Positions 1,268-37,809 are shown, numbered from the stretch's first letter. The stretch is 37,809 nt of DNA from a virus (IMGVR_UViG_2602041644_000008:1-37809); one strand, 5' to 3'. Made by a program: numbers and translations. Notes: generated from the sequence alone by a model not told the origin.

Positions 1268-1765
1268 TCAGTGCCACGATTTTTGCTTCTTCAGTGAATC
1301 GTATTGCTGTTCGCAGGATTCTCCTGCAATCCGATACTTTTCAGCCTCAGCTGCTGTTGCGTTGTAAACTCGGTTGCTTTCTTCAAGCATGTCGGCGAGC
1401 ACACCGATGACCTTGCTGGCTGGCGTGCCAGTGGGGAAAGATCCGGTATAGTGTTCGGCGAGTCGCTTGGTTTTGTCAAGCTCGGCGCGCAGGCTGTCAG
1501 CAGCGGCATTAGCATGCTCAGCATCAACACGCGCCACATCGATACGGGATTGTGCTTCACGTTCAATTTGTGTTTTCTCCTGATCACGTTGTGACCTGGC
1601 CTTATCATCAGCCTGTTTCTGATCTTCCTGTGCCTGCGCATACCCGGCGTCGTACTGACGACTGCCGTGTGCATTCCAGGCTACAACTCCTGATATGACC
1701 AGAACAGCAAGCATCGCCATGATAACCAACTGTTTCCAGTATGCTTTTGCGAATGCCCAGATCAT
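1268..1765 (-). CDS. i-spanin (Rz-like)
   Basis: 165 aa with an N-terminal TM helix ([18 protein letters not shown]) followed by a charged coiled-coil periplasmic domain. Start overlaps the endolysin stop. Last gene of the lysis cassette. Confidence 0.85.
1291..1539 (-). CDS. o-spanin (Rz1-like), fully embedded in the +1 frame of the i-spanin gene
   Basis: The internal Met of the 127-aa alternate-frame ORF gives [16 protein letters not shown]|C with lipobox LTAC, followed by a Pro-rich mature part ([24 protein letters not shown]). Starts at 1524 or 1515 are also possible. Confidence 0.7.
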   Translation of the reverse strand: MWRVLMLSMLMPLLTACAPSLTKPSDSPNTIPDLSPLARQPARSSVCSPTCLKKATEFTTQQQLRLKSIGLQENPANSNTIH

Positions 1766-2391
1766 ACCGCCAGCACCTTACTGGCAGTGATGTATCGCGC
1801 GCGCCGGTCATCAATGCCGTTCCGGCCACCATTGATAAGCAGAGTTACACGTGCAATATCTCCGGTATACTTCATGCAGCCTTTGCTGGAGAAGAACCAG
1901 GCCGCGCTACGAGCCGCGTATTCGTCCTGTGCCAGCAGTTCAGGATTCTCCAGCAGGTCAACTTTCAGACCGTTTCCGCAGTCACGATAGTTATTCAAAC
2001 CGGTAATCTGGATAAGCCCGCGCCCACGGTAATTCCAGCCATCGCCGGGAGCATTGTTACCCATGCGTTTGCTGTATACCAGATTTGCGATCGCGCGCTG
2101 GCGCTCAAGTGGCAATGGTGGTTCACCAGCGCGGCGCCCCAGTGCATTAGCCTGTCCCTGGGTGAGGCGTCCAGTCCGGACAAAGCTTGCCAGTCCGGTA
2201 ACGCTGTAGTTGAAATTCTCCTGCAACCTAGTGAACCCCCCAGACTCATGCCCAACTTGAGCAATAAACATTGCCTGATCTTCTGCTTTGCTGATACCAA
2301 ACTCTTTCATCGCAGAAGTTATATGCGAGAACCAGCGAGCGGCCAGCGCCTCGCTAATACCAGCAGCTCGCTGGAATTGTTTAATCTCCAT
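1762..2391 (-). CDS. Endolysin, glycoside hydrolase family 19 (chitinase-like)
   Basis: 209 aa with GH19-type motifs ([31 protein letters not shown]). Lies between the holin-like genes and the spanins. Confidence 0.85.
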
Positions 2392-3301: not shown

Positions 3302-3586
3302 TCAAATATAGAAATAAACACCAAAACAAACAGTAACAGGAACAACAAAGTCAAACAGGCTTCCAACATCCCATACGCGCGGATCAAAACCGCCCCACCA
3401 CGGCATGTTCATACGCTTGCCATGCCCGAACATTTCAATCCAGCGATATTCTGCCTGGGTGTGTTCACGCGCAATGAAGAACGTACAACCAGCTATCGCT
3501 CCATAAGCCCAGTTTCCGGTAAAAAGGCCAATCAGTACCTGCGAAGCCACAGCACAAAACGCATGAAGGAAAGGTGTTATATCCAT
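3302..3586 (-). CDS. Small polytopic membrane protein of unknown function (candidate surface/O-antigen modifier or exclusion factor)
   Basis: The track ORF is 3302..3649, but ATG at 3586 (MDITPFLH...) has SD AAAGGAG 6 nt upstream, giving 94 aa with about three hydrophobic segments. Lies immediately downstream of the tailspike gene. A CCGCGCCAT-CAA-ATGGCGCGG hairpin sits at 3276-3296 after the stop. Confidence 0.6.
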   Translation of the reverse strand: MDITPFLHAFCAVASQVLIGLFTGNWAYGAIAGCTFFIAREHTQAEYRWIEMFGHGKRMNMPWWGGFDPRVWDVGSLFDFVVPVTVCFGVYFYI

Positions 3587-3620: not shown

Positions 3621-5936
3621 TCATAAAATAGATTTCGTCTTTGTAACAATAATATCTACAAAATCACCTGCAGATATAGCTGATGGTACTGTATCTGCAA
3701 GAGTAATCTTTTCTGAAGAGATGTTTTGCACATCTAATAATTTATTTTCAACCCCATCCGTATATACCAATTTGACATCACTGAATGGAGGGTAATAAGT
3801 GACTGTTCCTTGGTATACATATATTTCAATGCCTGAAATTGATTTCACTACATACCTGCCCCTTACAAGATTAATTTTGAGTTCAGATAAATCGGTTTTA
3901 TAACAGGTAATTCCTGAACCAATGTTAGCCATACTAATATCAGTATCACTATAATAAGTAATTGCTTTTCCTTGTTTTAAGGTGAAGTTATCTTTGCTTT
4001 TCCTTGGCAAGGATGTGCTATTTTTGTAATATCTACCAGTTAAGCATAGCCATGAAAATGCAGTATTCGCTACATTACCACCAGAATACACAGCTAAACG
4101 AATTGCACTAACTGGAACCCCTTCATTATTAATCCTGATCTTAATGGAAGAAATGTTAGCAACAGTAGCATATCTATGGTTAGATGAATCCCATTGCATA
4201 GAAGAAGTTATTGCTTCTGTTTGTGAAGTTATGACATTCCCATCTCCATCTAATGCATACAGGTAAATGCGAAACGATGCCGTATCTGCTGAGAATGTAA
4301 ACATATCACCATTTCTTACTGGTACATCTCCAGATTCCCATAACAACCCAAAATTCCGCATAAAAGCAAACTTAGAAGAAACTAGGTGACGGATATTATA
4401 TAAACCATCTACATCTGTTTGATATGCTAATACACCAACTTCTCCATTGTTGGCACTGGATATAAATGGGGTGTTAGCATTTAAAGAAAACAATGTTACT
4501 TCATCGGATATATTTTCCTGAACATGAAATACTGCATTCCCCTTGCCATTATCAGTTACCTCTACATAAGTGTAAGGTGATGGATTGTATGGTTCATTTG
4601 TATAGTAAGGAGAACTTAACCATGAAGCCTCAATTGAGTTATTCCACGTATATTCACCAAAGTTAATTATCAACTGTTGGTTAGTTGGGGATGATGGATA
4701 TCGTTCAAAACGAAACCCGTAGAAGTAATTGTTATCACCTCTTTGAATATCAATTTTACCTGCCCCCTCCATAGTTCCACCATAAAACTTATTGTGGTTA
4801 TGATGATATGGATTATCAGCGAAAATTATATTATTCGTACGATTCAGATAAAAATAGTTTTCATTTATCCATCCGTTCTCAACTCCAAGAAAATGAATTG
4901 TATCGACCTTTTTCAGGTTAAAGGTTGAGTATGCTATTGAATAATCCGTCGATGCCACCGAAGCATTATAATTTGCATATAACTGTAAGTAGTCGCAACG
5001 CTCAATGTTTATATGCTGCCCTTTTGCCCCGATAATACGAATATCCGGTGTCGTTTCAGATGAAATACCAGAATTTCTGATAATCGTTCCGAAGTTTTGT
5101 CTTGGGTTGTTAGGGTTTGATGCATTCCCGCCAAGCAATACCCCTATTCCTGAGTGGGATATGGTAAAAACAGCATTGGTCATTTCGAGGCTGACATTAC
5201 GAAGATTTAATGTCTCCGTAATAATAAAATTACCTTCCGCTCGTAATGTTCTGGATGATTCTCGTGCATATTCTGCAGCCAGGATCAATGCAGATGTATC
5301 ATCTGTTATACCATCGCCTTTTGCCCCAAAATCGCAAACACTAACGGTGTCTCTCATCTTATCCTGGAACGTTCGGTATACTGCTCCAGAACCATACTGA
5401 ATAAACCAACCAAAACCACCAACAACCCCGGCGATTGCAGCATCGACATAATTACGCATTGAGCGATTATTTACAGCGTCCTGCTCAAGTGATGGATCTG
5501 CAAGGTTAGAAATTTTGTTTTGCTTTGCATCGTAATATTTTGCAAGCAAAGATGGTTTCATCAATGCACGTCTGAACCACCCAAAACATTGCTGGATCAG
5601 CATCGTCAGGTAGTCAAAAGCATCTTCATGCACTTCGGGGAAAAATTTTCCCTGATTGCGAAGATCTGTCTCCTGCACTACATCAAGCACACGATCTATC
5701 GTAATTCGCCAGCCAGCAGCAAGCGGAGACGGCAGAACCACTGAACCGCCACTATAAGTGCCCGCCCCAGTTACCGTATAACCGGTATCCAGAACCAATT
5801 CTGTTACGTTCCCGTTCAGGTCAGACACCTGAACAACCAGGTCTGATTTTCTGAAAATTCGAAAAGTATACGGAAACGATGTCGTAACGCCGTTACCTGT
5901 GTATTCGTTGTGGTCAACTTCGGTTGAGACCGTCAT
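3621..5936 (-). CDS. Tailspike (conserved N-terminal particle-binding domain + pectate-lyase-like beta-helix receptor domain)
   Basis: 771 aa. The N-terminus (MTVSTEVDHNEYTGNGVTTSFPYTFRIF...) is the type I recall from epsilon15/phiV10 tailspikes. Motif VCDFGAKGDGITDDTSAL is typical of Pectate_lyase_3 beta-helix tailspikes. The C-terminal two thirds are AT-rich. Confidence 0.85.
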   Translation of the reverse strand: MTVSTEVDHNEYTGNGVTTSFPYTFRIFRKSDLVVQVSDLNGNVTELVLDTGYTVTGAGTYSGGSVVLPSPLAAGWRITIDRVLDVVQETDLRNQGKFFPEVHEDAFDYLTMLIQQCFGWFRRALMKPSLLAKYYDAKQNKISNLADPSLEQDAVNNRSMRNYVDAAIAGVVGGFGWFIQYGSGAVYRTFQDKMRDTVSVCDFGAKGDGITDDTSALILAAEYARESSRTLRAEGNFIITETLNLRNVSLEMTNAVFTISHSGIGVLLGGNASNPNNPRQNFGTIIRNSGISSETTPDIRIIGAKGQHINIERCDYLQLYANYNASVASTDYSIAYSTFNLKKVDTIHFLGVENGWINENYFYLNRTNNIIFADNPYHHNHNKFYGGTMEGAGKIDIQRGDNNYFYGFRFERYPSSPTNQQLIINFGEYTWNNSIEASWLSSPYYTNEPYNPSPYTYVEVTDNGKGNAVFHVQENISDEVTLFSLNANTPFISSANNGEVGVLAYQTDVDGLYNIRHLVSSKFAFMRNFGLLWESGDVPVRNGDMFTFSADTASFRIYLYALDGDGNVITSQTEAITSSMQWDSSNHRYATVANISSIKIRINNEGVPVSAIRLAVYSGGNVANTAFSWLCLTGRYYKNSTSLPRKSKDNFTLKQGKAITYYSDTDISMANIGSGITCYKTDLSELKINLVRGRYVVKSISGIEIYVYQGTVTYYPPFSDVKLVYTDGVENKLLDVQNISSEKITLADTVPSAISAGDFVDIIVTKTKSIL

Positions 5937-6040
5937 GTTAAATCTCCAGATAGTCGCAGCACCCGTTGCGCCGCATATCTGGTTATTCTATTACCCAAAA
6001 AACCATATATGGATAGAAAGACTGTGAATATGAATAGATA

Positions 6041-6055
6041 TTACCTTTCAGGTAA
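6041..6055. promoter_or_regulatory. Operator copy (exact TTACC-N5-GGTAA)
   Basis: TTACCTTTCAGGTAA, intergenic, about 50 nt upstream of the LexA box and small antirepressor gene. Preceded by TAGATA. Confidence 0.75.
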
Positions 6056-6092
6056 TTTGCAAAACGTGCTGGATAGCAAACAAATTATTTGC

Positions 6093-6112
6093 TACTGTAT
6101 AAATATACAGTT
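6093..6112. promoter_or_regulatory. LexA (SOS) box
   Basis: TACTGTATAAATATACAGTT is a CTG-N10-CAG palindrome with an AT-rich centre, a near-perfect match to the E. coli consensus TACTG(TA)5CAGTA. It ends 5 nt before ATG 6118 and 20 nt before ATG 6133. Confidence 0.85.
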
Positions 6113-6132
6113 ATTGCATGGAGAAGATTAAG

Positions 6133-6390
6133 ATGCAGCAGTATCACTATCCACTGGAAGACGGATTTACCGAAAGGATTCACACGCCGGGAGGCGTCAG
6201 GTCACTGGTGGAGGGATCGCACTTGATGAAATTACTCCGGGATCTCGATAAGGATGGATTTAATGTCGATGGCCCACTTGCCGAACTGACTGCACTGATT
6301 AACTACGTCACCAGCTCACAGATGTCTATGCAGGATCTGCAAACACATCTCGACTATTGTGCCGAACAATTACGAAAACAAACCACATAA
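6133..6390 (+). CDS. Small LexA-controlled antirepressor candidate
   Basis: The track ORF starts at 6118. ATG 6133 has SD GGAG at 6121-6124 and leaves room for a transcript starting after the LexA box, giving 85 aa. The C-terminal 60 aa are homologous to the C-terminus of the Bro-N protein at 7536-8228. Confidence 0.65.
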   Translation: MQQYHYPLEDGFTERIHTPGGVRSLVEGSHLMKLLRDLDKDGFNVDGPLAELTALINYVTSSQMSMQDLQTHLDYCAEQLRKQTT

Positions 6391-6396
6391 AGAAAA

Positions 6397-6412
6397 GGCC
6401 GCTAGAGCGGCC
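6397..6412. terminator. Bidirectional terminator between convergent genes
   Basis: GGCCGCT-AGA-GCGGCC hairpin flanked by an A-run (left) and a T-rich tract (right). Lies between the stop of 6133-6390 (+) and the stop of 6412-7140 (-). Confidence 0.7.
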
Positions 6413-7140
6413 TATCGTTTCGCTTTGTGCTCGTCCCAGCACGTTTTGCACCATGCCATTAAGCCATCCGCATTTTGATTATTAGGGTAAAAGCTGGTTC
6501 GTTTTCTGCGGACATTACAAATTGGGCACCACTTCATATGGCGTGTATTCTTTGGACCATCGAGACACCTTGCACACCACTTAGTCAATCCATCTGGATT
6601 TTTTGACGATTTCCTGAATTTTTCATATGGAAGGTTTATTCTGCATCGCAAGCACTGCTTGCTACCACTTGAAACTCTGTTAGCTGATTCTTCTTTTGGC
6701 GGCGATACAGAAGGTATTCTTGCTGGCTCTGATACTGCCTGAGGTGCTTTTTTAGATGACTGAGACGATATGTCATCACCAGGGAATCGTCCATGATATG
6801 CCGGACGCGTTGACACTCCAGGTGGAAGCTCTGCTGTAAATGGCTTTGGCTGAATCAGTTGCCTCTCTTTTGCTAACTCCTGCTGTTTATAATATGTCTG
6901 GATTACCGCACTATCATAAGCAGGAGGTGCGGAAATATTAGGCGCATTACCTCCAGTTTTTTGAAACTGAGTAGAGGTGTGTTCTATCACCTGTGTACGA
7001 TTAATCGTTATCTCCCCATCTTCGGTCTTTATCGTTTTGTTATGATTAACGACCGTACGATCAGAGATCTTAGTCTTGTTCTGGTTGATAACATAAATAA
7101 TCACCGCAACCACACCAACAACTATCCAGAAAACTTCCAT
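6412..7140 (-). CDS. Membrane-anchored protein with two C-terminal CxxC...WCxxC zinc-ribbon repeats
   Basis: 242 aa. N-terminal TM helix (FWIVVGVVAVIIYVI) followed by Lys/Arg (N-out/C-in predicted). About 130 aa of low-complexity Pro/Ser/Gln linker. Two repeats: CLRCRINLPYEKFRKSSKNPDGLTKWCARC and CPICNVRRKRTSFYPNNQNADGLMAWCKTC. SD GAGGAAAAG. Confidence 0.8.
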   Translation of the reverse strand: MEVFWIVVGVVAVIIYVINQNKTKISDRTVVNHNKTIKTEDGEITINRTQVIEHTSTQFQKTGGNAPNISAPPAYDSAVIQTYYKQQELAKERQLIQPKPFTAELPPGVSTRPAYHGRFPGDDISSQSSKKAPQAVSEPARIPSVSPPKEESANRVSSGSKQCLRCRINLPYEKFRKSSKNPDGLTKWCARCLDGPKNTRHMKWCPICNVRRKRTSFYPNNQNADGLMAWCKTCWDEHKAKR

Positions 7141-7160
7141 TGCTTTTCCTCACAATAACA

Positions 7161-7175
7161 TTACCTTAAAGGTAA
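7161..7175. promoter_or_regulatory. Operator copy (exact)
   Basis: TTACCTTAAAGGTAA, 20 nt upstream of the start of the minus-strand Zn-ribbon gene. On the minus strand it is preceded by AGATAT (-10-like). Confidence 0.75.
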
Positions 7176-7224
7176 TATCTTGCTTTCAGGTGATCAAGCG
7201 TTAAACGCAATCAACCAAATAAGG

Positions 7225-7254
7225 TTGATTTTAATATTTCTTCGCGTTTATCAT
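7225..7254 (+). promoter_or_regulatory. Sigma70-like promoter for the antirepressor leader
   Basis: TTGATT-N18-TATCAT. The -35 hexamer is the right arm of an 8-bp inverted repeat AATCAACC-N6-GGTTGATT (7209-7230). The last T of the -10 is the first T of the operator at 7254. Confidence 0.5.
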
Positions 7255-7268
7255 TACCTTTTAGGTAA
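7254..7268. promoter_or_regulatory. Operator copy (exact)
   Basis: TTACCTTTTAGGTAA, abutting the -10-like hexamer TATCAT. Confidence 0.75.
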
Positions 7269-7381
7269 ATTTACATCGCACTCCTCTTGTGCCATAGTAA
7301 TTGGGCACTGGCAAAATCCAGTGCCGGGATTGGTCTCCCGGATTACTACAGAGGCACATATGCCGCATAAGCGGTTTTTTT
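7262..7381 (+). ncRNA. Candidate small RNA / terminated leader upstream of the Bro-N antirepressor gene
   Basis: No credible ORF. Hairpins GGCACTGG-CAAAAT-CCAGTGCC (7304-7325) and CCGGGA-TTGGTC-TCCCGG (7325-7342), then CCGC-ATAA-GCGG + T7 (7363-7381). The start is inferred from the promoter above. Confidence 0.35.
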
Positions 7382-7535
7382 ATGTGTAAAGCGCACCTAT
7401 TCTATGGTGAGCTGTGTGGGGGCACCGAAAGGTGCGCCGGGTTCCTTTGTAGCCGGTAAGACCAACTCTGCACAGTTCACCACCATCTGATTGGTCTCAG
7501 CGGTGGTGATTAACCTAACTACAAAGGTGATCGCC

Positions 7536-8228
7536 ATGAATACCAAACCTTCCATCTTTTCCTTTGAGTCATCCTGCCAGATCCGTATGTTCATGATTGA
7601 CGGAGAACCTTGGTTTGTCACCAAAGATGTGTGCAATGCTTTGAATATTGATGTTACACAAGCGAGAAAACTTGATAAAAAAGGCTGGAACAAAAAGGGG
7701 CTGTATTCAATACAGACCCCTGGTGGAATACAAGAACTATCCATCGTTTCAGAATCAGGTCTCTACATCCTTATTCTGCGTTGCAAAGAGGCAATGACAG
7801 AGGGAACGAGAGCGTTCAGATTTCTTGAATGGGTTACAGGTGAGGTTCTTCCTCAGATCCGCCGCACCGGAAGTTACATTAAAAACTCGCTCCCGCAGGA
7901 AGAACGCATAAAGATGGTTGCCGACCAGGTAGCCAACGCCACAGCATCAGCAATGATGCAGGCAATGAAGATAGAGAACAAAACCTACAGTGCCCCACTG
8001 AAGCCCGGCTACCGTAGCCTGATTCATTCTCCGTCTGGTGTTCTCGGCCTGACGGAGAACTCACTGCTGATGAATCTGCTGAACCAGTTACAGGAAGACG
8101 GGCACGATGTATCGGGCGCGGCGGCGGAGCTGACCACCATGTTCTGCTACATCGTCGGTGTGAGCAAATGCCTGCGTGATATCCAGACCCACGCGGAGTA
8201 CATCAACGACAAAGCAGGATTCTTCTGA
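7536..8228 (+). CDS. Bro-N domain antirepressor-like protein
   Basis: The track ORF starts at 7491; ATG 7536 (MNTKPSIF...) has SD AAAGGTGA, giving 230 aa. Bro-N motif FSFESSCQIRMFMIDGEPWFVTKDVCNALNI. The C-terminal 65 aa are paralogous to the small protein at 6133-6390. Confidence 0.8.
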   Translation: MNTKPSIFSFESSCQIRMFMIDGEPWFVTKDVCNALNIDVTQARKLDKKGWNKKGLYSIQTPGGIQELSIVSESGLYILILRCKEAMTEGTRAFRFLEWVTGEVLPQIRRTGSYIKNSLPQEERIKMVADQVANATASAMMQAMKIENKTYSAPLKPGYRSLIHSPSGVLGLTENSLLMNLLNQLQEDGHDVSGAAAELTTMFCYIVGVSKCLRDIQTHAEYINDKAGFF

Positions 8229-8236
8229 CGGGCGGC

Positions 8237-8256
8237 GGCACAGGGATGTGCCTTTA
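8237..8256 (+). terminator. Terminator after the Bro-N gene
   Basis: GGCACA-GGGA-TGTGCC hairpin followed by TTTAAATAATT. Confidence 0.55.
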
Positions 8257-8272
8257 AATAATTCTGTACAGA

Positions 8273-8301
8273 TTGCAGACCGGGGGTGAATAGCGTACTA
8301 T
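8273..8301 (+). promoter_or_regulatory. Sigma70-like promoter of the YafO-like cassette
   Basis: TTGCAG-N17-TACTAT. The last T of the -10 is the first T of the operator at 8301. Confidence 0.55.
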
Positions 8302-8315
8302 TACCTTAAAGGTAA
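8301..8315. promoter_or_regulatory. Operator copy (exact)
   Basis: TTACCTTAAAGGTAA, identical to the copy at 7161. Confidence 0.75.
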
Positions 8316-8357
8316 ACCTGTTTTTATTTTATACCTGTAACTTACCGGAGATTAAAG

Positions 8358-8684
8358 ATGACAAAACTTGGATTCGTGATGAGAGGTCCGGTAAGAAGCG
8401 GAACTCATGCAAAGCGTAGCAAGAGTCGTATTTTTACTGGTAAGGTTGTAGCACGTAAATCAGCTATTGGCTCGTTCAATAGTGAAAATGCGGCATTGCG
8501 CCATATTTTTATCAGCACAAAGCCAAGAGCATCCGCTGATGTGCATACAATGTCTATTCCTATCACAAAGAATATCAAGCGGATAAAAAAGCTCTCATCT
8601 GCAGAATCAAAAGAGATATCTTTCCGCCAGCTTAACTCATTAGAAACGCATATGAAGGAAGAGGAATTCGATGTTTTTGAGTGA
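8358..8684 (+). CDS. Basic 108-aa protein of unknown function; candidate partner/antitoxin of the downstream YafO-like protein
   Basis: SD GGAG 7 nt upstream. Lys/Arg-rich N-terminal two thirds and an acidic tail (EEEFDVFE). Its 3' end overlaps the next gene by 14 nt. I recognise no family. Confidence 0.6.
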   Translation: MTKLGFVMRGPVRSGTHAKRSKSRIFTGKVVARKSAIGSFNSENAALRHIFISTKPRASADVHTMSIPITKNIKRIKKLSSAESKEISFRQLNSLETHMKEEEFDVFE

Positions 8685-9183
8685 GTATAGCGGGAAGGTT
8701 ATACCTACTGGTGAGTTTAAAACTGATGACTTTCTGATTTCGCTAAAAGATGCTTTTAAACAACACTGGCGTCATGGTCATCATCCTGATCTGGGAAAAG
8801 ATACTCTTTTTGAAAGACCAGACGAAGTATTAGGCTTCCATCTCAGAAAGGTTCATGTCAATATTGGTGAATATGCATCATATTCATACTCATGTACTGA
8901 ACAGTGTTGGGATGAGTGGTCATATGGATTGATTGATGAACAAGGAAATTACAGGCCAAAACCAACCAGTAACGCATATCTCATATATGCAGTCAATGAA
9001 ATAAGAGATGCAGCCTTACTAGCTTATTGGGACCCGCCCGCACACACCAAAGCTAACGCAAAAGTTTGGATGGATTCCGTATTGAATTTCACAAAATTAT
9101 TTCATGAACGAACTAATACAGCTCCACTTAGTAGAAATGTTTATCCGTGGGATTATTCGTACAAATCCAAAAAGCCTGCATAG
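8671..9183 (+). CDS. YafO-family toxin-like protein (putative ribosome-dependent mRNA interferase) with an insertion
   Basis: 170 aa. GKDTLFERP...LRKVHVNIG and TSNAYLIYAVNEIRDAALLAYWDPPAHTKA parallel the YafO blocks FGRDALY...VAHIHL and SHLVYC...YLLIAVISPDAH, as I remember them. An extra Cys/Trp-rich segment (YSYSCTEQCWDEWSYGLIDEQGNY) lies between the blocks. Confidence 0.55.
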   Translation: MFLSEYSGKVIPTGEFKTDDFLISLKDAFKQHWRHGHHPDLGKDTLFERPDEVLGFHLRKVHVNIGEYASYSYSCTEQCWDEWSYGLIDEQGNYRPKPTSNAYLIYAVNEIRDAALLAYWDPPAHTKANAKVWMDSVLNFTKLFHERTNTAPLSRNVYPWDYSYKSKKPA

Positions 9184-25771: not shown

Positions 25772-25848
25772 GTGGCATTAGCTCAGTTGGACAGAGCAAC
25801 CGCCTTCTAAGCGGTTGGTTGCAGGTTCGAATCCTGCATGCCACGCCA
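25772..25848 (+). tRNA. tRNA-Arg (anticodon UCU, reads AGA)
   Basis: Hand-folded 77-nt cloverleaf: acceptor GTGGCAT/ATGCCAC, D arm GCTC-AGTTGGACA-GAGC, anticodon arm ACCGC-CTTCTAA-GCGGT, variable loop TGGTT, T arm GCAGG-TTCGAAT-CCTGC, discriminator G, encoded CCA. Confidence 0.9.
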
Positions 25849-30717: not shown

Positions 30718-31212
30718 TCACTCTCCTTTGATGCGAATGCCAGTGGTACTCATTCTCCTGATTTCCCAGAGCACACGAGGAACACCACCGTTTCCGACCG
30801 GATCGCGCTTACTCCGCATGGCGACGCTTGATTCCGCCCAGCTTTTTCTTGGAGGAAGCTCTTTCACACGAACAAAACCAGCTGCGCGAAGAGATGCTCC
30901 TGATTCATCTGCCTGGGTGTACGTAATACAACGTTGATAACCCATAGCCTTTGCTGCCCGCCAGACAGCACCATAAAGCGCGCTGTTAGCGTTGCGTTCT
31001 CCTGTGGTACATGTGCGATTTACTTCAAGCGTTAATCCATCGTCCAAATGTCGTGCAACAGGTCGACCAGCTGTCGCCACACCTATCAATTCTCCGGCAT
31101 TATTTCTCAGACCAATGCTGAATTTATGCCCCACTGGTGGTTTATTGTGTCGGTGGTGCTGTGCGATAAATTCCTGCGCCGCTTTCAGCGTTATAGGTGA
31201 AATGACCATCAC
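30718..31212 (-). CDS. GNAT-like (acetyltransferase-fold) early protein
   Basis: 164 aa. The pattern AQEFIAQHHRHNKPPVGHKFSIG...LIGVATAGRPVARHLDDG...LEVNRTC...ALYGAVWRAAKAMGY recalls a phage-associated GNAT-related family. Not verified. Confidence 0.45.
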   Translation of the reverse strand: MMVISPITLKAAQEFIAQHHRHNKPPVGHKFSIGLRNNAGELIGVATAGRPVARHLDDGLTLEVNRTCTTGERNANSALYGAVWRAAKAMGYQRCITYTQADESGASLRAAGFVRVKELPPRKSWAESSVAMRSKRDPVGNGGVPRVLWEIRRMSTTGIRIKGE

Positions 31213-31901
31213 TCAGACTCCTCCTTGATGCCAGCGGCGCGGGAATCATTCCATCGCTTTACTTCTTCACGAATTACGTCAATGCATTCTTTCGAATCCA
31301 TTAGGTAATCTTCATCAAAAAGACGTTCCTGTTCGTTTTCTATCGCAACAATGATTGCTTCAACTAATTTTTGTGCCTGAGAATCACTTTCTAACTCTGC
31401 AATGCGCTTCTCTGCGGCTTCCAACTTCTCGCGCATATCGTCAACGTACTCGACCAGAGAACCGCCAGCAGGAATTTCGCACTCCTCGACCAGTTGGAAG
31501 TAGATATCAGCTGCGGCCCGTGTGTTGCTATGCCTAGCGTCGCCCATCTCACCTTCACGAAGAGCATCGCGTTCGGCGGTAAGATTGGCTATTTTGCTGT
31601 CTTTGCCTTCCAGCTCAACGCGCAGCTTCCCTACCGTTAGCGCAATATCCTCGTTCTCCTGATCGCGGGATTTGATGTATTGCTGGTTCCTTTCCCGTTC
31701 ATCCAGTAGTGCCAAAGCAACCTTTGGATTAAAGGCAGCAATAAATTCAGCGTTGTTTTTCAGAACGTGTTGCGCAATGGCCTGACCACTTAGTCGGACC
31801 TTATAACCACGTGCGCCACGGTGTGGTTTATATGAGTCCCAGTCTCCCCACGTTGCTTTTTCTGCCTTTTCACGCAGTGCCTGATAGTTAATGTTGGTCA
31901 T
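31209..31901 (-). CDS. Ead/Ea22-like coiled-coil protein
   Basis: 230 aa. NAEFIAAFNPKVALALLDE and long coiled-coil segments are typical of Ea22-like prophage proteins. Confidence 0.65.
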   Translation of the reverse strand: MTNINYQALREKAEKATWGDWDSYKPHRGARGYKVRLSGQAIAQHVLKNNAEFIAAFNPKVALALLDERERNQQYIKSRDQENEDIALTVGKLRVELEGKDSKIANLTAERDALREGEMGDARHSNTRAAADIYFQLVEECEIPAGGSLVEYVDDMREKLEAAEKRIAELESDSQAQKLVEAIIVAIENEQERLFDEDYLMDSKECIDVIREEVKRWNDSRAAGIKEESE

Positions 31902-31902
31902 A

Positions 31903-32202
31903 TCACATCACCCTGAAGCCGTTGCATTTACGTAAAAAATCGCAGATATAGCCCTTCATTTTTTCGTGCCAATCTCGATCATTCCCATTGCACCAACCAT
32001 CAGGTGGAGTCCAGTTTTCTATCAGAGCAGCCATTTTCTTTGCTTTCGCCGGAGTAGCTGTTGCGGTATCGCAGTAATGACGAGTGTCAACCAACGTATC
32101 CATACCATCGATATCAAGTACGCAAAACCATGTGTGATTCGGAATTCCTACAGGTGGTATTTGTTGCCCACGTCGACGTTTATCAATAAGATATACACTC
32201 AC
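31903..32202 (-). CDS. Hypothetical early protein
   Basis: 99-aa ORF tightly packed in the operon. Confidence 0.55.
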   Translation of the reverse strand: MSVYLIDKRRRGQQIPPVGIPNHTWFCVLDIDGMDTLVDTRHYCDTATATPAKAKKMAALIENWTPPDGWCNGNDRDWHEKMKGYICDFLRKCNGFRVM

Positions 32203-32768
32203 TGGTTACCTCCTTTGCGAAGCTCTGCGGCGATATCTTCGAGAACGCCATCAGAGAATGAGCGGTCAAAATCGCCTTCCGGCGCATTAGCCATAAACTC
32301 AGTAGAGGTAAGAATCATCCGGGCAATATCCGCGGCGTTCTTCGCAGTATCATCAATAAAACCAGCTTCCCAGGCAGCCAGCATTCTGTTCGCCACAAAG
32401 TAAGCGCCCTCCTTGCGTGCTTCAGTCTTCACTTCAGCTAGGAAAGCATCGGTGGCTGGAATGGGCTTTTGTGGTGATATAGCAATGCGAATTGTCTCAA
32501 GGTCTGGAGCTGTTTCCGCTGTTGGCACCTTGATATAACCCGTCTGCACCCCATTCATGATGAACCTGCGACGGTCATCACATATCGCCTTAAGCCCCGC
32601 ATTCTCCGCTGCCAGCGCATTAGCACGCACCAGTTGCACTTCCAGTTGCGTTGCCAAATCGCTGATCAGCTTTGTCACACTGCGCATATCAACGGCACCA
32701 CATTCTGCTTTCAGTTCCGAAGCCATCTCATGCCCGGCGGCAACTAACCCTTTGATATTACTTTCCAT
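32199..32768 (-). CDS. Hypothetical early protein
   Basis: 189-aa ORF, SD GAGGGTAAAG. Confidence 0.6.
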   Translation of the reverse strand: MESNIKGLVAAGHEMASELKAECGAVDMRSVTKLISDLATQLEVQLVRANALAAENAGLKAICDDRRRFIMNGVQTGYIKVPTAETAPDLETIRIAISPQKPIPATDAFLAEVKTEARKEGAYFVANRMLAAWEAGFIDDTAKNAADIARMILTSTEFMANAPEGDFDRSFSDGVLEDIAAELRKGGNQ

Positions 32769-33291: not shown

Positions 33292-34092
33292 TTACTTGAT
33301 AAATCCTGCCGCCTTTCCCCGCCTGTATTCCTCCATCAGCCACTGCGCCGGTGTTATTCCCCCCAGGGTAGCGGCGTTAGGCATACACCCGAAACTTCGC
33401 CCTGGTGGATGGTAAACGCCTCTCCCTGTGTCCGGAGGCGTACTCATGGGTTCTGGCTTTGCCTGTATGCTGATCACCGGATCGGGTATCTGCTGTCCGG
33501 AAGCCACCTTTTTCGCCCAATCATCAAGCAGCCTGCGCGCGTGTTTCTCAACCTCAATCTCGCTAAGCTGGCGCTGATACATTGCACGGCGGGTATCACA
33601 TACGACCCAGTACATAACCGGATGCCGCCACGGGAATCTTTCGGGACCACCAGGATATAAACTTTTTTCCTTGCTGTACCGGTGAAACTCCGCCATCACA
33701 TCGTCAATGGTGACGCCAAGAACCATCTTGCTGTCTTTACACCACTTGATAAATTGCCCTGGCGACGGCCAGAACGGAGATTCACTGGCGCGGGCGTGGC
33801 GCATACCAGCAGAAACCTGTTCACGGGTTCGGATCCCCCCTTCGGCAAACGCAGCAATCCACTGCTGTTTTGCAGCAACTTCCTGCTCTGGCGTCTTCAG
33901 GTTGGTTACCACTGCCGCCGGAAACAGTTGTTTCAACTGTTTGAAAAGGGCATCAACAAGCCTCTCTGCTGACATGTTCACTACGTTGTCATTGTTGGTG
34001 TACTGATGCTCATAACCTGACATGCGAGAAAGGGCTTCTCCGTCACGGTTTTGTATCGCGGTAAAAACGTTGTTCACAAGAAATCCTCCCAT
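33292..34092 (-). CDS. Lambda P-like replication protein (helicase loader)
   Basis: 266 aa. The alternative start GTG 34077 has SD GGAGGA and a GTGA overlap with the O-like stop. The block QQWIAAFAEGGIRTREQVSAGMRHARASESPFWPSPGQFIKWCK parallels lambda P RRQWVLAFRENGITTMEQVNAGMRVARRQNRPFLPSPGQFVAWCR. Confidence 0.85.
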   Translation of the reverse strand: MGGFLVNNVFTAIQNRDGEALSRMSGYEHQYTNNDNVVNMSAERLVDALFKQLKQLFPAAVVTNLKTPEQEVAAKQQWIAAFAEGGIRTREQVSAGMRHARASESPFWPSPGQFIKWCKDSKMVLGVTIDDVMAEFHRYSKEKSLYPGGPERFPWRHPVMYWVVCDTRRAMYQRQLSEIEVEKHARRLLDDWAKKVASGQQIPDPVISIQAKPEPMSTPPDTGRGVYHPPGRSFGCMPNAATLGGITPAQWLMEEYRRGKAAGFIK

Positions 34093-34889
34093 GCTTCAGG
34101 GCTGTTCCAGTGCGGAACGTTGTTATCAGGTAATGTTGATTGCTTCTGTCTGCTAATCTGCAGCCGCCTTGCCAGCTTCTGCTCCCACTGTGCCTGATGG
34201 TATGCCCTACCCTCAGCCATCCAGTAAATTCTGAACTCTGCAAGTTCCTGTGCCGTTGGCAGACTGTCCAGGTAGATCCCCTGCAATGAGCTTTTCCGAA
34301 GAAAGTCATCTGATGGCTGCCATTGTTCATGCATGACAAATTTGCCTAATTGCCCTGGCCCACCAGGAGGAACAAAGTTATTCATCACGGCGTTGTTTGC
34401 GCCGGGGTCATGATGCACAGAATCCCCGTTTTTTGTCCTGCTCTCCCTCTCTTGGTTAAATGACTGGTTATATGACTGGTTCTGGATCCCGTTTTTGGGA
34501 TCATTCAACATCCCGTTTTTGGGATCATTCAACATCCCGTTTTTGGGTATATTCCCGTTTTCGGGAACATTACCGTTTTCGGGTTCATTACCCCCTTCCC
34601 GGTTGCCTTTAATGTTCCCGTTTTTGGTTATATTAAGAGAGAAAACCCGCACTCTTTTCGTCGCTCCCTTTCTCTCTCCGGTATCTGAAATAAGCCCCAT
34701 TTTCATGAGCGATATAAGCCCGGCCTGCACGGTTTTTTTATTCAGGCAAGTGTCTTTAACGAGGCGTTCTATGCTGGGGTAGCAGAGGTTATATTCATCG
34801 GCTCTGTCAGCCATCGAGAGCAGTATGAGCTTTAATGACGAGCTACCTGGATCTGTCTCCCAGGCCCAATCTGTTGCATGTCTGCTCAT
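34074..34889 (-). CDS. Replication initiator (O-like functional analogue; N-terminal winged HTH)
   Basis: 271 aa, SD GGAG. N-terminal wHTH (LKLILLSMADRADEYNLCYPSIERLVKDTCLNKKTVQAGLISL). The central repeat-encoded NGN/PKNG segment coincides with DNA iterons. Lies directly upstream of the P-like gene. Confidence 0.75.
   Translation of the reverse strand: MSRHATDWAWETDPGSSSLKLILLSMADRADEYNLCYPSIERLVKDTCLNKKTVQAGLISLMKMGLISDTGERKGATKRVRVFSLNITKNGNIKGNREGGNEPENGNVPENGNIPKNGMLNDPKNGMLNDPKNGIQNQSYNQSFNQERESRTKNGDSVHHDPGANNAVMNNFVPPGGPGQLGKFVMHEQWQPSDDFLRKSSLQGIYLDSLPTAQELAEFRIYWMAEGRAYHQAQWEQKLARRLQISRQKQSTLPDNNVPHWNSPEAWEDFL
34460..34629. repeat. Origin-like iteron array inside the initiator gene
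   Basis: TCCCGTTTTTGGGA-type units start at 34487, 34511, 34535, 34553, 34571, (34589 degenerate) and 34616, with spacings of 24, 24, 18, 18, 18 and 27 bp. A tandem ATGACTGGTT x2 lies at 34460-34482. Confidence 0.8.
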
Positions 34890-35568: not shown

Positions 35569-35570
35569 AT

Positions 35571-35585
35571 TTACCTGTTGGGTAA
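35571..35585. promoter_or_regulatory. Operator copy (exact) in the switch region
   Basis: TTACCTGTTGGGTAA. Overlaps a plus-strand TTTACC-N18-TAAATT promoter-like pair facing the repressor gene. Confidence 0.7.
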
Positions 35586-35640
35586 TATTGCTTTAAATTG
35601 AATCATCTTCTGATTCAGATATGAGGCGATTTTCCAGAAA

Positions 35641-36225
35641 ATGAAAAGTATCCAGGACGTCCGCAGGCAAAATCTCAACGACTTGATCGACCGTGAATTC
35701 AATGGTGTTCAGACGCGGATGGCTGAAAAACTTGGAACTCAGGCAAATCTGGTAAACCGCTGGGCTCTTGGCAAGAAGGTTATCGGCGACCAGGTTGCGC
35801 GAAAAATTGAAGCTGCCGCCAATAAACCCCGTAACTGGCTTGATATCGATCGCTCGCTTTCTCAGGAAGGTTTTCAGCCTGTCGGACCAAGCGACATTGG
35901 TCAACTGGCGGCTCACAACCTGGAACGCTGGATGAGCGAAAGCCGCGACCTTTCAACGCAGGGAAAACTTCACCGCGCATCCGGCGTCGCCCAGGTAACA
36001 ATCAGCCGCCTGTTAAACAATGAGGTCAGCGTTTCCATTTCCACCCTGGAGAATGTTGCATCCGCATTTGGGCGTCACGGATATGAATTACTGATTCACC
36101 CGCACGACCCCGCGACTATCAACTATGACCGCTCGCGCTACGCATTGTTACCTGAAACAGAGAAGGCAAAGATCGAAAGTTACATTGAATTTGTCATCAA
36201 CCAGAACGAAAAAAACAAACAATAA
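35641..36225 (+). CDS. Prophage repressor candidate with two HTH domains and no S24 peptidase domain
   Basis: 194 aa. The N-terminal HTH ends in ARKIEAAANKPRNWLD (CI/C2-like). The second is XRE-type (LHRASGVAQVTISRLLNNEVSVSISTLENVASAFG). No Ser/Lys autocleavage module is recognisable. Divergent from cro; a strong terminator follows. Confidence 0.7.
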   Translation: MKSIQDVRRQNLNDLIDREFNGVQTRMAEKLGTQANLVNRWALGKKVIGDQVARKIEAAANKPRNWLDIDRSLSQEGFQPVGPSDIGQLAAHNLERWMSESRDLSTQGKLHRASGVAQVTISRLLNNEVSVSISTLENVASAFGRHGYELLIHPHDPATINYDRSRYALLPETEKAKIESYIEFVINQNEKNKQ

Positions 36226-36270: not shown

Positions 36271-36282
36271 TTGCCTATTTGA

Positions 36283-36297
36283 TTACCTAACGGGTAA
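36283..36297. promoter_or_regulatory. Operator copy (exact), upstream of the early-left promoter
   Basis: TTACCTAACGGGTAA, 20 nt upstream of TTGACA. Confidence 0.7.
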
Positions 36298-36316
36298 TTT
36301 TTTTAACTCATATCTA

Positions 36317-36345
36317 TTGACATCAAACCAGATACGCATAATTAT
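36317..36345 (+). promoter_or_regulatory. Early-left (PL-like) promoter
   Basis: TTGACA-N17-AATTAT, bracketed by operator copies at 36283 and 36345. Confidence 0.55.
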
Positions 36346-36359
36346 TACCTCAACGGTAA
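36345..36359. promoter_or_regulatory. Operator copy (exact) at the -10/+1 of the early-left promoter
   Basis: TTACCTCAACGGTAA. Confidence 0.7.
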
Positions 36360-36378
36360 CAGACCGAGGTAACAAGTT

Positions 36379-37581: not shown

Positions 37582-37809
<228 letters not shown>

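Follow-up and report, generated by a model that had tools for sequence, protein, structure and literature searches.

Small antirepressors that are controlled by LexA and act on non-cleavable repressors are known from 186 (Tum), N15 (AntC), and the Gifsy prophages (GfoA/GftA) (PMC3121763, PMC7380047). For Salmonella prophages, a review citing Kim and Ryu (2013) describes that self-cleavage of LexA allows Ant to be made, which inhibits the lytic repressor by protein-protein interaction (PMC7380047). According to the summary in a structural paper, Rep occupies palindromic DNA in tetrameric form, and an Ant tetramer takes up two Rep dimers and disrupts the Rep tetramer (PMC9638917). In this study we analyzed positions 6040 to 8316 of a viral DNA of 37,809 nucleotides (IMGVR_UViG_2602041644_000008:1-37809). 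This whole stretch, called the window below, comprises most of an epsilon15/phiV10-type podovirus prophage of Escherichia coli (genus Uetakevirus). The region contains two genes, ant and broN::ant, whose products are called Ant1 and Ant2, and it is probably an immI-like antirepression region in which two antirepressors are built on one module and each answers to a gating signal of its own. Ant1 is an orthologue of Ant from phage SPC32H, whose LexA-controlled antirepression was reportedly published by Kim and Ryu in 2013 (J Virol 87:11775) and by Kim et al. in 2016 (PNAS 113:E2480).

RNA-gated antirepressors are known as well. P1 possesses a C1-controlled c4-icd-ant operon, and its C4 RNA is needed for full repression of ant (PMC8198154). 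In Gifsy-1, read-through gives an isrK-orf45-anrP mRNA that is translationally silent, the short IsrK RNA switches its translation on in trans (PMC4825925), and AnrP induces the prophage (Hershko-Shalev et al. 2016, PMC4825925). Both isrK and C4 RNAs beside Bro-N genes, together with domain swapping, have been described for satellites and APSE phages (PMC10111431, PMC7313666). None of the parts of the region studied here is new in kind, and it is their combination alone that appears to be undescribed; current understanding is not overturned by our findings. The P1/P7 immI region with its c4 antisense RNA, icd, and ant1/2 is said to have been described by Citron and Schuster in 1990, and the Bro network of domain-swapping proteins reportedly by Iyer, Koonin, and Aravind in 2002. 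We found no earlier account of a Bro-N::Ant fusion or of phiV10-like C4 alleles in a literature search that was short on subscription-journal papers.

Ant1 and its SOS box

An earlier reading of the window, made by a model from the DNA sequence without database searches and called the original prediction here, had claimed a near-perfect LexA box upstream of an open reading frame (ORF) of 85 to 90 codons. We found the box at exactly this position, with 18 of 20 matches to the consensus (Table 1). When up to three mismatches were allowed, it was the sole site in the 37.8 kb of the window, and no site occurred in 100 shuffled sequences; two other CTGT-N8-ACAG cores in the window lack an AT-rich centre. 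The ORF has a longer form of 90 amino acids (6118..6390), and the start at 6133 agrees with the length of the 86-amino-acid SPC32H Ant.

The search of the Protein Data Bank (PDB) with Ant1 gave a single match, chain E of 5D50, which is named 'Anti-repressor protein' (phmmer E 1.4e-47), and the alignment spanned residues 7-90 of the 90-amino-acid form and chain residues 3-86. Ant1 is about 88% identical to SPC32H Ant (tblastn), and ant occupies the same slot as SPC32H_020, between tail genes and the divergently transcribed tailspike gene. An alignment of the intergenic regions placed the 17-bp palindrome and the LexA box at identical positions in SPC32H, TL-2011b, phiV10, and the window, the box being kept in all of them (TACTGTATGTTTATACAGTG in SPC32H). 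Judged from this alignment, an operator combined with a LexA box in front of the small gene characterizes the phage group as a whole, and is not the new element for which it had been taken. The proposed entry into induction through a small antirepressor with a LexA box was right, but this is the known SPC32H system.

Based on this orthology, we assign the role of SOS trigger to Ant1 with high confidence. Host LexA would occupy the SOS box in the lysogen; after DNA damage LexA would be cleaved and Ant1 made, and Ant1 would then bind the non-cleavable Rep, break its DNA-binding tetramer, and free the lytic promoters, a mechanism transferred from SPC32H. The order of events in the original prediction, from SOS via a small antirepressor to a non-cleavable repressor, thus stands through the orthology of Ant and Rep with their SPC32H counterparts, and not through the analogy to the Gifsy prophages and 186 Tum on which it had been built. 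Tum, AntC, and GfoA/GftA share the SOS-box logic with Ant1 as a functional analogy only, since no sequence relationship to Ant1 was found in the Pfam scan or the module profile search. Ant1 has no DinI or Tum-type Pfam domain, and homology to Tum or the Gifsy antirepressors had no support in Pfam or the profile search, in which the Tum sequence itself was not compared pairwise.

Table 1. Features of the antirepression region and of the rep locus, with positions counted from the first letter of the window
Feature	Position	Strand	Remarks
Palindrome ATTACCTTTCAGGTAAT	6040..6056		17 bp; putative Rep operator upstream of ant; abuts -35-like TTGCAA (6057-6062)
LexA (SOS) box TACTGTATAAATATACAGTT	6093..6112		2 mismatches, at low-information positions, to the 20-nt consensus TACTGTATATATATACAGTA; perfect CTGT-N8-ACAG core
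ant (Ant1)	6133..6390	+	85 aa; GGAG Shine-Dalgarno sequence 6120-6123, 9 nt before ATG; SPC32H Ant orthologue
Palindrome ATTACCTTAAAGGTAAT	7160..7176		Putative Rep operator between the divergent 242-aa ORF and isrK; just upstream of the ORF start
Palindrome ATTACCTTTTAGGTAAA	7253..7269		Putative Rep operator; directly abuts -35 of the isrK promoter
P_isrK promoter-like site	7270..7298	+	TTTACA, 17 nt, CATAGT, TG upstream of -10; ends 6 nt before the isrK 5' end; conserved in relatives
isrK-type RNA (RF01394)	7305..7381	+	74.7 bits (gathering score 50); intrinsic terminator 7362-7381 (7362-7375, then T run)
a1 UUGGUCU	7330-7336	+	Loop of second isrK hairpin; complementary to a'
b1 CUACAGAGG	7346-7354	+	In isrK; pairs with b' with one G-U
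C4 antisense RNA (RF01695)	7400..7487	+	78.2 bits (gathering score 45); full-length model 1-87
b' CCUUUGUAG	7444-7452	+	Loop of C4 hairpin 2
a' AGACCAA	7459-7465	+	Single-stranded 3' stretch after C4 hairpin 2
a2 UUGGUCU	7491..7497	+	Just 3' of C4; complementary to a'; covaries with a' and a1
b2 CUACAAAGG	7519..7527	+	Complementary to b'; overlaps the broN::ant Shine-Dalgarno sequence AAGGUG (7524-7529), 6 nt before ATG; covaries with b' and b1
broN::ant (Ant2)	7536..8228	+	230 aa; Bro-N 16-106, helical linker, Ant module about 149-226
Palindrome ATTACCTTAAAGGTAAA	8300..8316		Downstream of Ant2; overlaps -10-like TACTAT (promoter reading by inspection)
rep	35641..36225	+	194 aa; homologue of SPC32H Rep; palindromes 35570-35586, 36282-36298, and 36344-36360 on its flanks
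GC-rich hairpin	6396..6413		Between the convergent genes ant and 6412..7140; terminator-like site
242-aa ORF	6412..7140	-	Hydrophobic N-terminal segment/helix, Cys-rich C-terminal repeat; phrog_6762 (unknown function), E 1e-150

Rep and its putative operators

The candidate repressor had been described as a protein with two helix-turn-helix (HTH) domains and without an S24 autocleavage domain. This description was confirmed by Pfam, which gave HTH_3 at residues 106-147, a weaker YdaS-like HTH at 21-61, and no Peptidase_S24 domain at E values up to 0.01. In phmmer searches the protein matched chain A of 5D50 ('Repressor') over residues 1-190 and thus its full length (E 4e-42), and its C-terminal half matched 5D4Z, a C-terminal domain (E 4e-20). 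We take 5D50 to be the SPC32H Rep-Ant complex and 5D4Z the tetramerisation and Ant-binding C-terminal domain of SPC32H Rep. A repressor of the lambda CI or LexA type that is cleaved with the aid of RecA was ruled out on these grounds, the absence of an S24 domain and the match of the C-terminus to 5D4Z. Rep of the window is 100% identical to Rep of phiV10.

A search of the window with the pattern ATTACC-N5-GGTAAT gave 16 sites with up to two mismatches, where 1.26 were expected, which is an about 13-fold excess. The phage operator that had been placed at 6041 upstream of ant is among these palindromes, one base from that position. The SPC32H genome contains 12 copies of the palindrome clustered around its rep gene, a likeness that adds to the full-length homology, the two HTH-type domains, and the lack of an S24 domain shared by the two Rep proteins. 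We infer that Rep binds the ATTACC-N5-GGTAAT palindromes. As a separate observation, the half-sites ATTACC/GGTAAT are unchanged between phages whose Rep N-terminal domains are only 54-56% identical (the window, locus L003 at 33739-34335, and locus L013).

The isrK-C4 leader of broN::ant

The original prediction had credited the larger gene with operators plus a structured leader only. The leader is indeed structured, with a fold z-score of -4.6, and it consists of two RNAs that exceed their Rfam gathering scores, isrK and C4 (Table 1), the second of which can pair with the ribosome-binding site of the gene. The order isrK, C4, Bro-N gene was present in 8 of 8 relatives examined that have the Bro-N gene, among them TL-2011b, phiV10, Tyrion, HEMP4, and the Klebsiella phages ST512-KPC3phi13.3, ST11-OXA245phi3.2, and Kp4865-1. 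According to Rfam and the genome record, SPC32H has neither isrK nor C4 nor the Bro-N gene, in which it differs from the window.

Across eight loci the three a sites (a1, a', and a2) and the three b sites (b1, b', and b2) covary three ways. The a element occurs as UUGGUCU, UUGGCGU, or UUGAGAC and the b element as CUACAAAGG, CUAAAAGG, CUAAGCGG (CUAAACGG in the isrK copy), or CUAAGUGG, and at least five combinations of a and b are found in the eight loci. The window phage and EC.W1-9 combine UUGGUCU with CUACAAAGG, TL-2011b has UUGGCGU with CUAAAAGG, and HEMP4 has UUGGCGU with CUAAGUGG, on an essentially identical Rep. In the window the three a sites agree with one another, and so do the three b sites. 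In RNAduplex cross-matrices the cognate duplexes were the most stable, with -9.0 to -11.5 kcal/mol for cognate b'/b2 pairs compared to -2.4 to -6.4 kcal/mol for most non-cognate ones; the exception was the b allele of TL-2011b and phiV10, whose cognate duplex (-5.6 kcal/mol) is no more stable than some non-cognate ones and gives a weak contrast. From this covariation there is strong comparative evidence for pairing of C4 with the ribosome-binding site of the Bro-N gene and for decoy targets in isrK. Since the C4 loops are complementary to this site, Ant2 would be gated by RNA and not simply derepressed.

On this basis the segment from 7253 to 8228 would be a riboregulated antirepressor cassette of the P1/P7 c4 type. 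A promoter beside a Rep operator would transcribe isrK, and read-through of the isrK terminator would give an RNA containing C4 and the Ant2 message. Pairing of a' and b' with a2 and b2 would block translation of Ant2, the Shine-Dalgarno sequence being covered at b2, until the short IsrK RNA with its decoys a1 and b1 titrates C4 and turns Ant2 on, in the manner of IsrK and AnrP in Gifsy-1. The direction in which IsrK and C4 would act is taken by analogy from the described systems. A relative that superinfects the lysogen and has a non-cognate C4 allele could produce its own Ant2 and overcome the resident Rep, and the cassette would add a route of induction that is independent of SOS.

The region resembles immI of P1 and P7 in that a C4-family RNA and the antirepressor gene are transcribed together, starting at a promoter beside an operator of the primary repressor, in that a' and b' pair both with upstream sites (a1 and b1) and with downstream sites (a2 and b2) that lie at a ribosome-binding site, and in that the a and b alleles vary among phages sharing the primary repressor. 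It differs from P1 in that C4 targets the antirepressor gene's own Shine-Dalgarno sequence, the upstream part is a terminated isrK-type small RNA (sRNA), a LexA-controlled antirepressor is present where P1 has Coi, and the antirepressor consists of Bro-N and an SPC32H Ant module. With the isrK-orf45(STnc1160)-anrP locus of Gifsy-1 it shares a terminated isrK RNA and read-through into a structured RNA that is followed by an antirepressor-like gene, although the output studied there is AntQ toxicity.

Two short ORFs lie over the leader RNAs (7382-7490), one of 25 codons directly after the isrK terminator and one of 28 codons starting at a conserved AUGG in the 5' stem of C4, and neither is conserved in length or frame among the relatives. 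In ST11-OXA245phi3.2 an ATG within C4 is in frame with the Bro-N gene.

Derepression as a less likely gate of Ant2

A simpler circuit had been proposed for the region, a feed-forward amplifier in which Rep represses both ant promoters, a little Ant1 made after SOS induction inactivates Rep, and strong synthesis of Ant1 and Ant2 then locks induction in. Conserved putative Rep operators do adjoin both promoters (at 6040 for ant, at 7160 and 7253 for isrK), the GGTAAA|TTTACA junction of operator and -35 region at the isrK promoter being kept in 7 of 8 related loci, and the P1 immI operon is likewise controlled by C1 (PMC8198154). However, C4 is transcribed together with the Ant2 message and would block its ribosome-binding site, so that derepression alone gives no Ant2 and loss of Rep alone should not release it. 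Silencing of Ant2 would moreover require C4 in the lysogen, an argument for an active P_isrK at this stage, and in Gifsy-1 lysogens PisrK is active (PMC4825925). SPC32H, finally, works with Ant1 alone and without any Ant2.

The position of the operators speaks against simple repression as well. The palindrome at P_isrK ends where the -35 region begins, its centre is at about -44 from the isrK 5' end, and the core promoter is not overlapped. The ant operator has the same geometry if the promoter is TTGCAA (6057-6062), 17 nt, ACAAAT, in which case the LexA box starts at about +1. At the early promoter-like site downstream of rep, a palindrome overlaps the -10 region and the transcription start, which is the classical operator position for repression. 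By analogy to lambda CI at OR2 relative to PRM, an operator at -44 need not repress, and repression by Rep at the ant and isrK promoters is an assumption. We therefore regard the amplifier as rather unlikely in its simple form. A modified loop is conceivable, because a burst of isrK after derepression could out-titrate C4, which is present only in read-through transcripts; the feed-forward idea thus has a place through titration of C4 by IsrK and not through derepression alone.

Ant2 and its shuffled C-terminal module

The Bro-N domain of Ant2 (PF02498, residues 16-106) was recognized with E 2e-13 and 51.2 bits at a cut-off of 25.6 bits. In agreement with the alignment put forward in the original prediction, Ant1 and the C-terminus of Ant2 were 42% identical over 78 residues without gaps (BLASTP, E 5e-17). 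The C-terminus of Ant2 (149-225) also matched 5D50_E (E 9.2e-14), and the protein was assigned to the PHROGs phrog_130 ('anti-repressor Ant') and phrog_450. An AlphaFold2 model of Ant2 reached a predicted local distance difference test (pLDDT) score of 84-96 at residues 150-230; it was below 50 in the N-terminal half, where the alignment held few Bro-N sequences. A Foldseek search of the PDB with this model returned only meaningless SH2/p85 matches and did not recover 5D50, which, given the low pLDDT of the N-terminal half, does not count against the homology. The homology of Ant2 to SPC32H Ant rests on the sequence matches and not on structure prediction.

A profile of the module, compared with 1.84 billion representative proteins, matched only 61, mostly stand-alone proteins of about 85-130 residues. 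In several of the 61 the module forms the C-terminal part of a longer protein, with Bro-N, AntA, Phage_pRha, or ORF6N at the N-terminus. These fusions were found by the exhaustive profile search, whereas a word-indexed homologue search with Ant1 gave close relatives of about 86 residues only and no fusions. A split-query tblastn showed a sharp mosaic joint in Ant2. The idea of a shared, shuffled repressor-binding module was therefore borne out in the sense that one module is fused to Bro-N, AntA, P22_AR_N, Phage_pRha, or ORF6N. As in the Bro network, these N-terminal domains are swapped on a common C-terminal module; the difference is that here this module can be identified with SPC32H Ant, which has a solved structure and the partner Rep. 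The principle of swapped modules is known, and the identification of one such module with the SPC32H Ant fold seems, within the literature searched, to be new. Since the module has this fold, the fused proteins have a specific predicted target.

E. coli phages with 98-100% identical Rep proteins share the module (149-230) at 100% identity but differ in their C4 alleles, and their Bro-N domains are only 53-61% identical; three C4 allele classes occur in this set (the window, phiV10, TL-2011b, and HEMP4). A fixed module combined with a variable Bro-N domain and C4 indicates that a cassette of promoter, isrK, C4, target, and N-terminal domain is exchanged as a unit on a C-terminal module matched to Rep. 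From the homology of the module and its complete identity wherever Rep is identical, we infer that Ant2 binds Rep. Because phages with identical Rep carry different a and b alleles, the most likely role of the cassette is to provide a second immunity specificity, as in P1 compared to P7. With moderate confidence, we see Ant2 as an RNA-gated second antirepressor that serves anti-immunity of the immI type and induction independent of SOS.

It is also conceivable, but in our view unlikely, that Ant2 is no antirepressor of its own Rep, its Ant-like C-terminus serving only to oligomerise a DNA-binding regulator, a host-takeover or anti-defence factor, or a protein aimed at other prophages. SPC32H Ant is tetrameric according to the structural paper (PMC9638917), and its fold thus includes an oligomerisation function; proteins of the Bro network swap domains and have varied roles, most of them untested (PMC10111431); repressors of other prophages are targeted by P22 Ant and the Gifsy antirepressors (PMC7380047, PMC3121763); and the module is only 42% identical to Ant1. 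However, the conservation between the Ant1 family and the fused modules extends beyond the hydrophobic core to polar positions (H17, S29, D41, E51, Q70, and H72 in alignment A2; conserved positions in alignment A3 are D188, G189, E198, and H219), and the module stays constant wherever Rep does, while the N-terminal domain and the RNA cassette are swapped. Its identity also drops with that of the Rep C-terminal domain (78%/73% for Tyrion and 54%/44% for Kp4865-1), a trend that consists of three classes and is inseparable from overall divergence. Moreover, C4/isrK cassettes are classically attached to antirepressors (PMC4825925, PMC8198154).

That the Bro-N cassette is a decaying remnant without current function in this prophage is highly improbable, since, in spite of the split gene and altered isrK promoter of phiV10, the interrupted genes of several phage records, and the complete absence of the cassette from SPC32H, the 230-codon ORF of the window is intact and 99% identical to its counterpart in the isolated phage EC.W1-9, both RNAs lie well above their Rfam thresholds with consistent a and b sites, and at least 80% of the arrangement (6000-8330) recurs at about 97-98% identity in 99 complete E. 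coli genomes.

A frameshift divides the Bro-N::Ant gene of phiV10 into p23 (194 amino acids) and p22, and its isrK promoter has lost the -35 region to a replacement that is part of a longer palindrome (AGTGCTTATATTTACC-GCAAA-GGTAAATATAAGCACT; 3510-3570 in locus L002); in this type phage the cassette may be undergoing decay. In six phage records (KM389435, KM389252, KM389360, PP350014, KP869107, and KP869108) Bro-N::Ant is found in two pieces over about 1.1-1.3 kb compared to 0.69 kb, pointing to an insertion of about 0.6 kb within the coding sequence.

Further module copies were observed in relatives. TL-2011b has a third antirepressor gene for a protein of 314 amino acids composed of P22_AR_N and the Ant module (31060-32244 in locus L009; 6509-7693 in locus L001), the module being 96% identical to residues 149-230 of the window's Ant2. 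This gene is adjoined by an Rfam match to the sar antisense RNA (7455-7522 in locus L001) and by a 55-codon ORF, whose product has no Pfam match and which, by eye, we take to be Arc/Mnt-like. Copies of the module gated by LexA, by C4, and apparently by sar hence occur together in TL-2011b. HEMP4 encodes, besides Bro-N::Ant, a second fusion of 218 amino acids composed of AntA and the Ant module (about 1603-2260, minus strand), with a module 99% identical to that of the window.

Weighing the two-antirepressor reading

Several results weigh against the interpretation of the region as a pair of antirepressors directed at one repressor. Rep is only 42% identical to SPC32H Rep (40% in the C-terminal domain), in contrast to the 88% for Ant1, which makes cognate binding of Ant1 and Rep in the window phage plausible but not guaranteed. 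The module of Ant2 is only 42% identical to Ant1 and might serve oligomerisation alone. No sigma-70 promoter was found for ant above the threshold of the promoter scan, nor was one found for the tailspike gene; by inspection only, we propose TTGCAA, 17 nt, ACAAAT as P_ant, or a -10 region inside the LexA box. Finally, the leader contains no conserved ORF that could couple translation as icd does in P1 or orf45 in Gifsy-1: in the eight loci the leader ORFs have 2-45 codons in different frames and end 21-84 nt before the ant2 start, except for one locus in which an ORF runs in frame into ant2. The coupling mechanisms of Gifsy-1 and P1 can therefore not be transferred one to one. The difference between 88% identity of Ant1 and 40% of the Rep C-terminal domain, its presumed partner, would mean either that the surface touched by Ant is small and conserved or that recombination acts on ant and rep separately.

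Taken together, we rank Ant1 as the SOS trigger first and RNA-gated Ant2 second, and place simple amplification by derepression third, with lower confidence. A more specific version, to which we would give somewhat less than an even chance, is that in phiV10-like E. coli prophages one module is used twice against the same Rep, as a LexA-gated stand-alone protein and as an isrK/C4-gated fusion to exchangeable Bro-network N-terminal domains, with a and b elements that diversify on an unchanged Rep, resulting in bipartite immunity like that of P1 and P7. If this is true, such podoviruses with the same repressor would be heteroimmune through their RNA alleles, an induction route triggered by an sRNA and independent of SOS would exist, and a first structural handle on the targets of the variable C-termini of Bro, AntA, and Rha 'antirepressors' would be available. 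The link of the Ant fold to the C-termini of Bro-N, AntA, P22_AR_N, Rha, and ORF6N proteins offers a testable target for an opaque protein network, and the series of C4 alleles on identical Rep is a natural experiment on RNA-based heteroimmunity outside P1/P7.

Genomic context and accessory genes

The segment 5900-8400 was 95% identical to Escherichia phage TL-2011b over 85% of its length in a nucleotide comparison, 98% identical to phage EC.W1-9, and 91.5% identical to phiV10 in a partial match only; the relatives match the first 25 kb of the window in the same way. The antirepression region has the tailspike gene (3621..5936, minus strand) on one side and the genes for tail and ejection proteins (9456 onward, minus strand) on the other, a slot in which phage P22 keeps its immI region (mnt, arc, ant, and sar RNA). 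The likeness to P22 consists in this position beside the tailspike gene and in the P22_AR_N::module gene beside a sar match in TL-2011b. It ends there, as the window has no sar, arc, or mnt and the P22 repressor is RecA-cleavable.

Part of 6000-8330 was present in 541 of 5,426 complete E. coli genomes (~10%). In RefSeq complete E. coli genomes the Ant1 orthologue is labelled 'hypothetical protein', and its families PHROG 450 and 15539 are labelled 'unknown function', although the close homologue SPC32H Ant has a solved structure and a known mechanism (2013, 2016). For genomes with a LexA-boxed ant, SOS inducibility of the prophage is predicted; the relatives include TL-2011b from an outbreak strain of enterohemorrhagic E. 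coli (EHEC).

Between ant and isrK the window contains a 242-codon ORF (Table 1), which gave weak matches to an endonuclease VII / Lar-like zinc ribbon and, in Pfam, to Stc1. It is variable or missing in relatives, with phiV10 and SPC32H lacking it, and as far as can be told it is an accessory gene that was inserted between the two ant genes and stands outside the switch. The hairpin between this ORF and ant is likely a bidirectional terminator.

Downstream of Ant2 there are two ORFs on the plus strand, 8358..8684 (phrog_5933) and 8671..9183 (phrog_1651), the latter with a weak YafO-toxin-like Pfam match (E 9.5e-4). They are preceded by a promoter-like site, TTGCAG-17-TACTAT, which is overlapped by the palindrome 8300-8316, and the ORFs of 8272-9183 may form a further Rep-controlled accessory operon. 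Between the structural and terminase regions there is a tRNA gene (25772-25845, plus strand; Rfam, 73 bits), and a tRNA-Arg is annotated at the corresponding position of SPC32H. The last ORF of the window (37621-37800, minus strand) appears to resemble the C-terminus of an IstB helper protein of the IS21 family; this resemblance suggests that an insertion sequence element interrupts the early (recE-like) region of the prophage.

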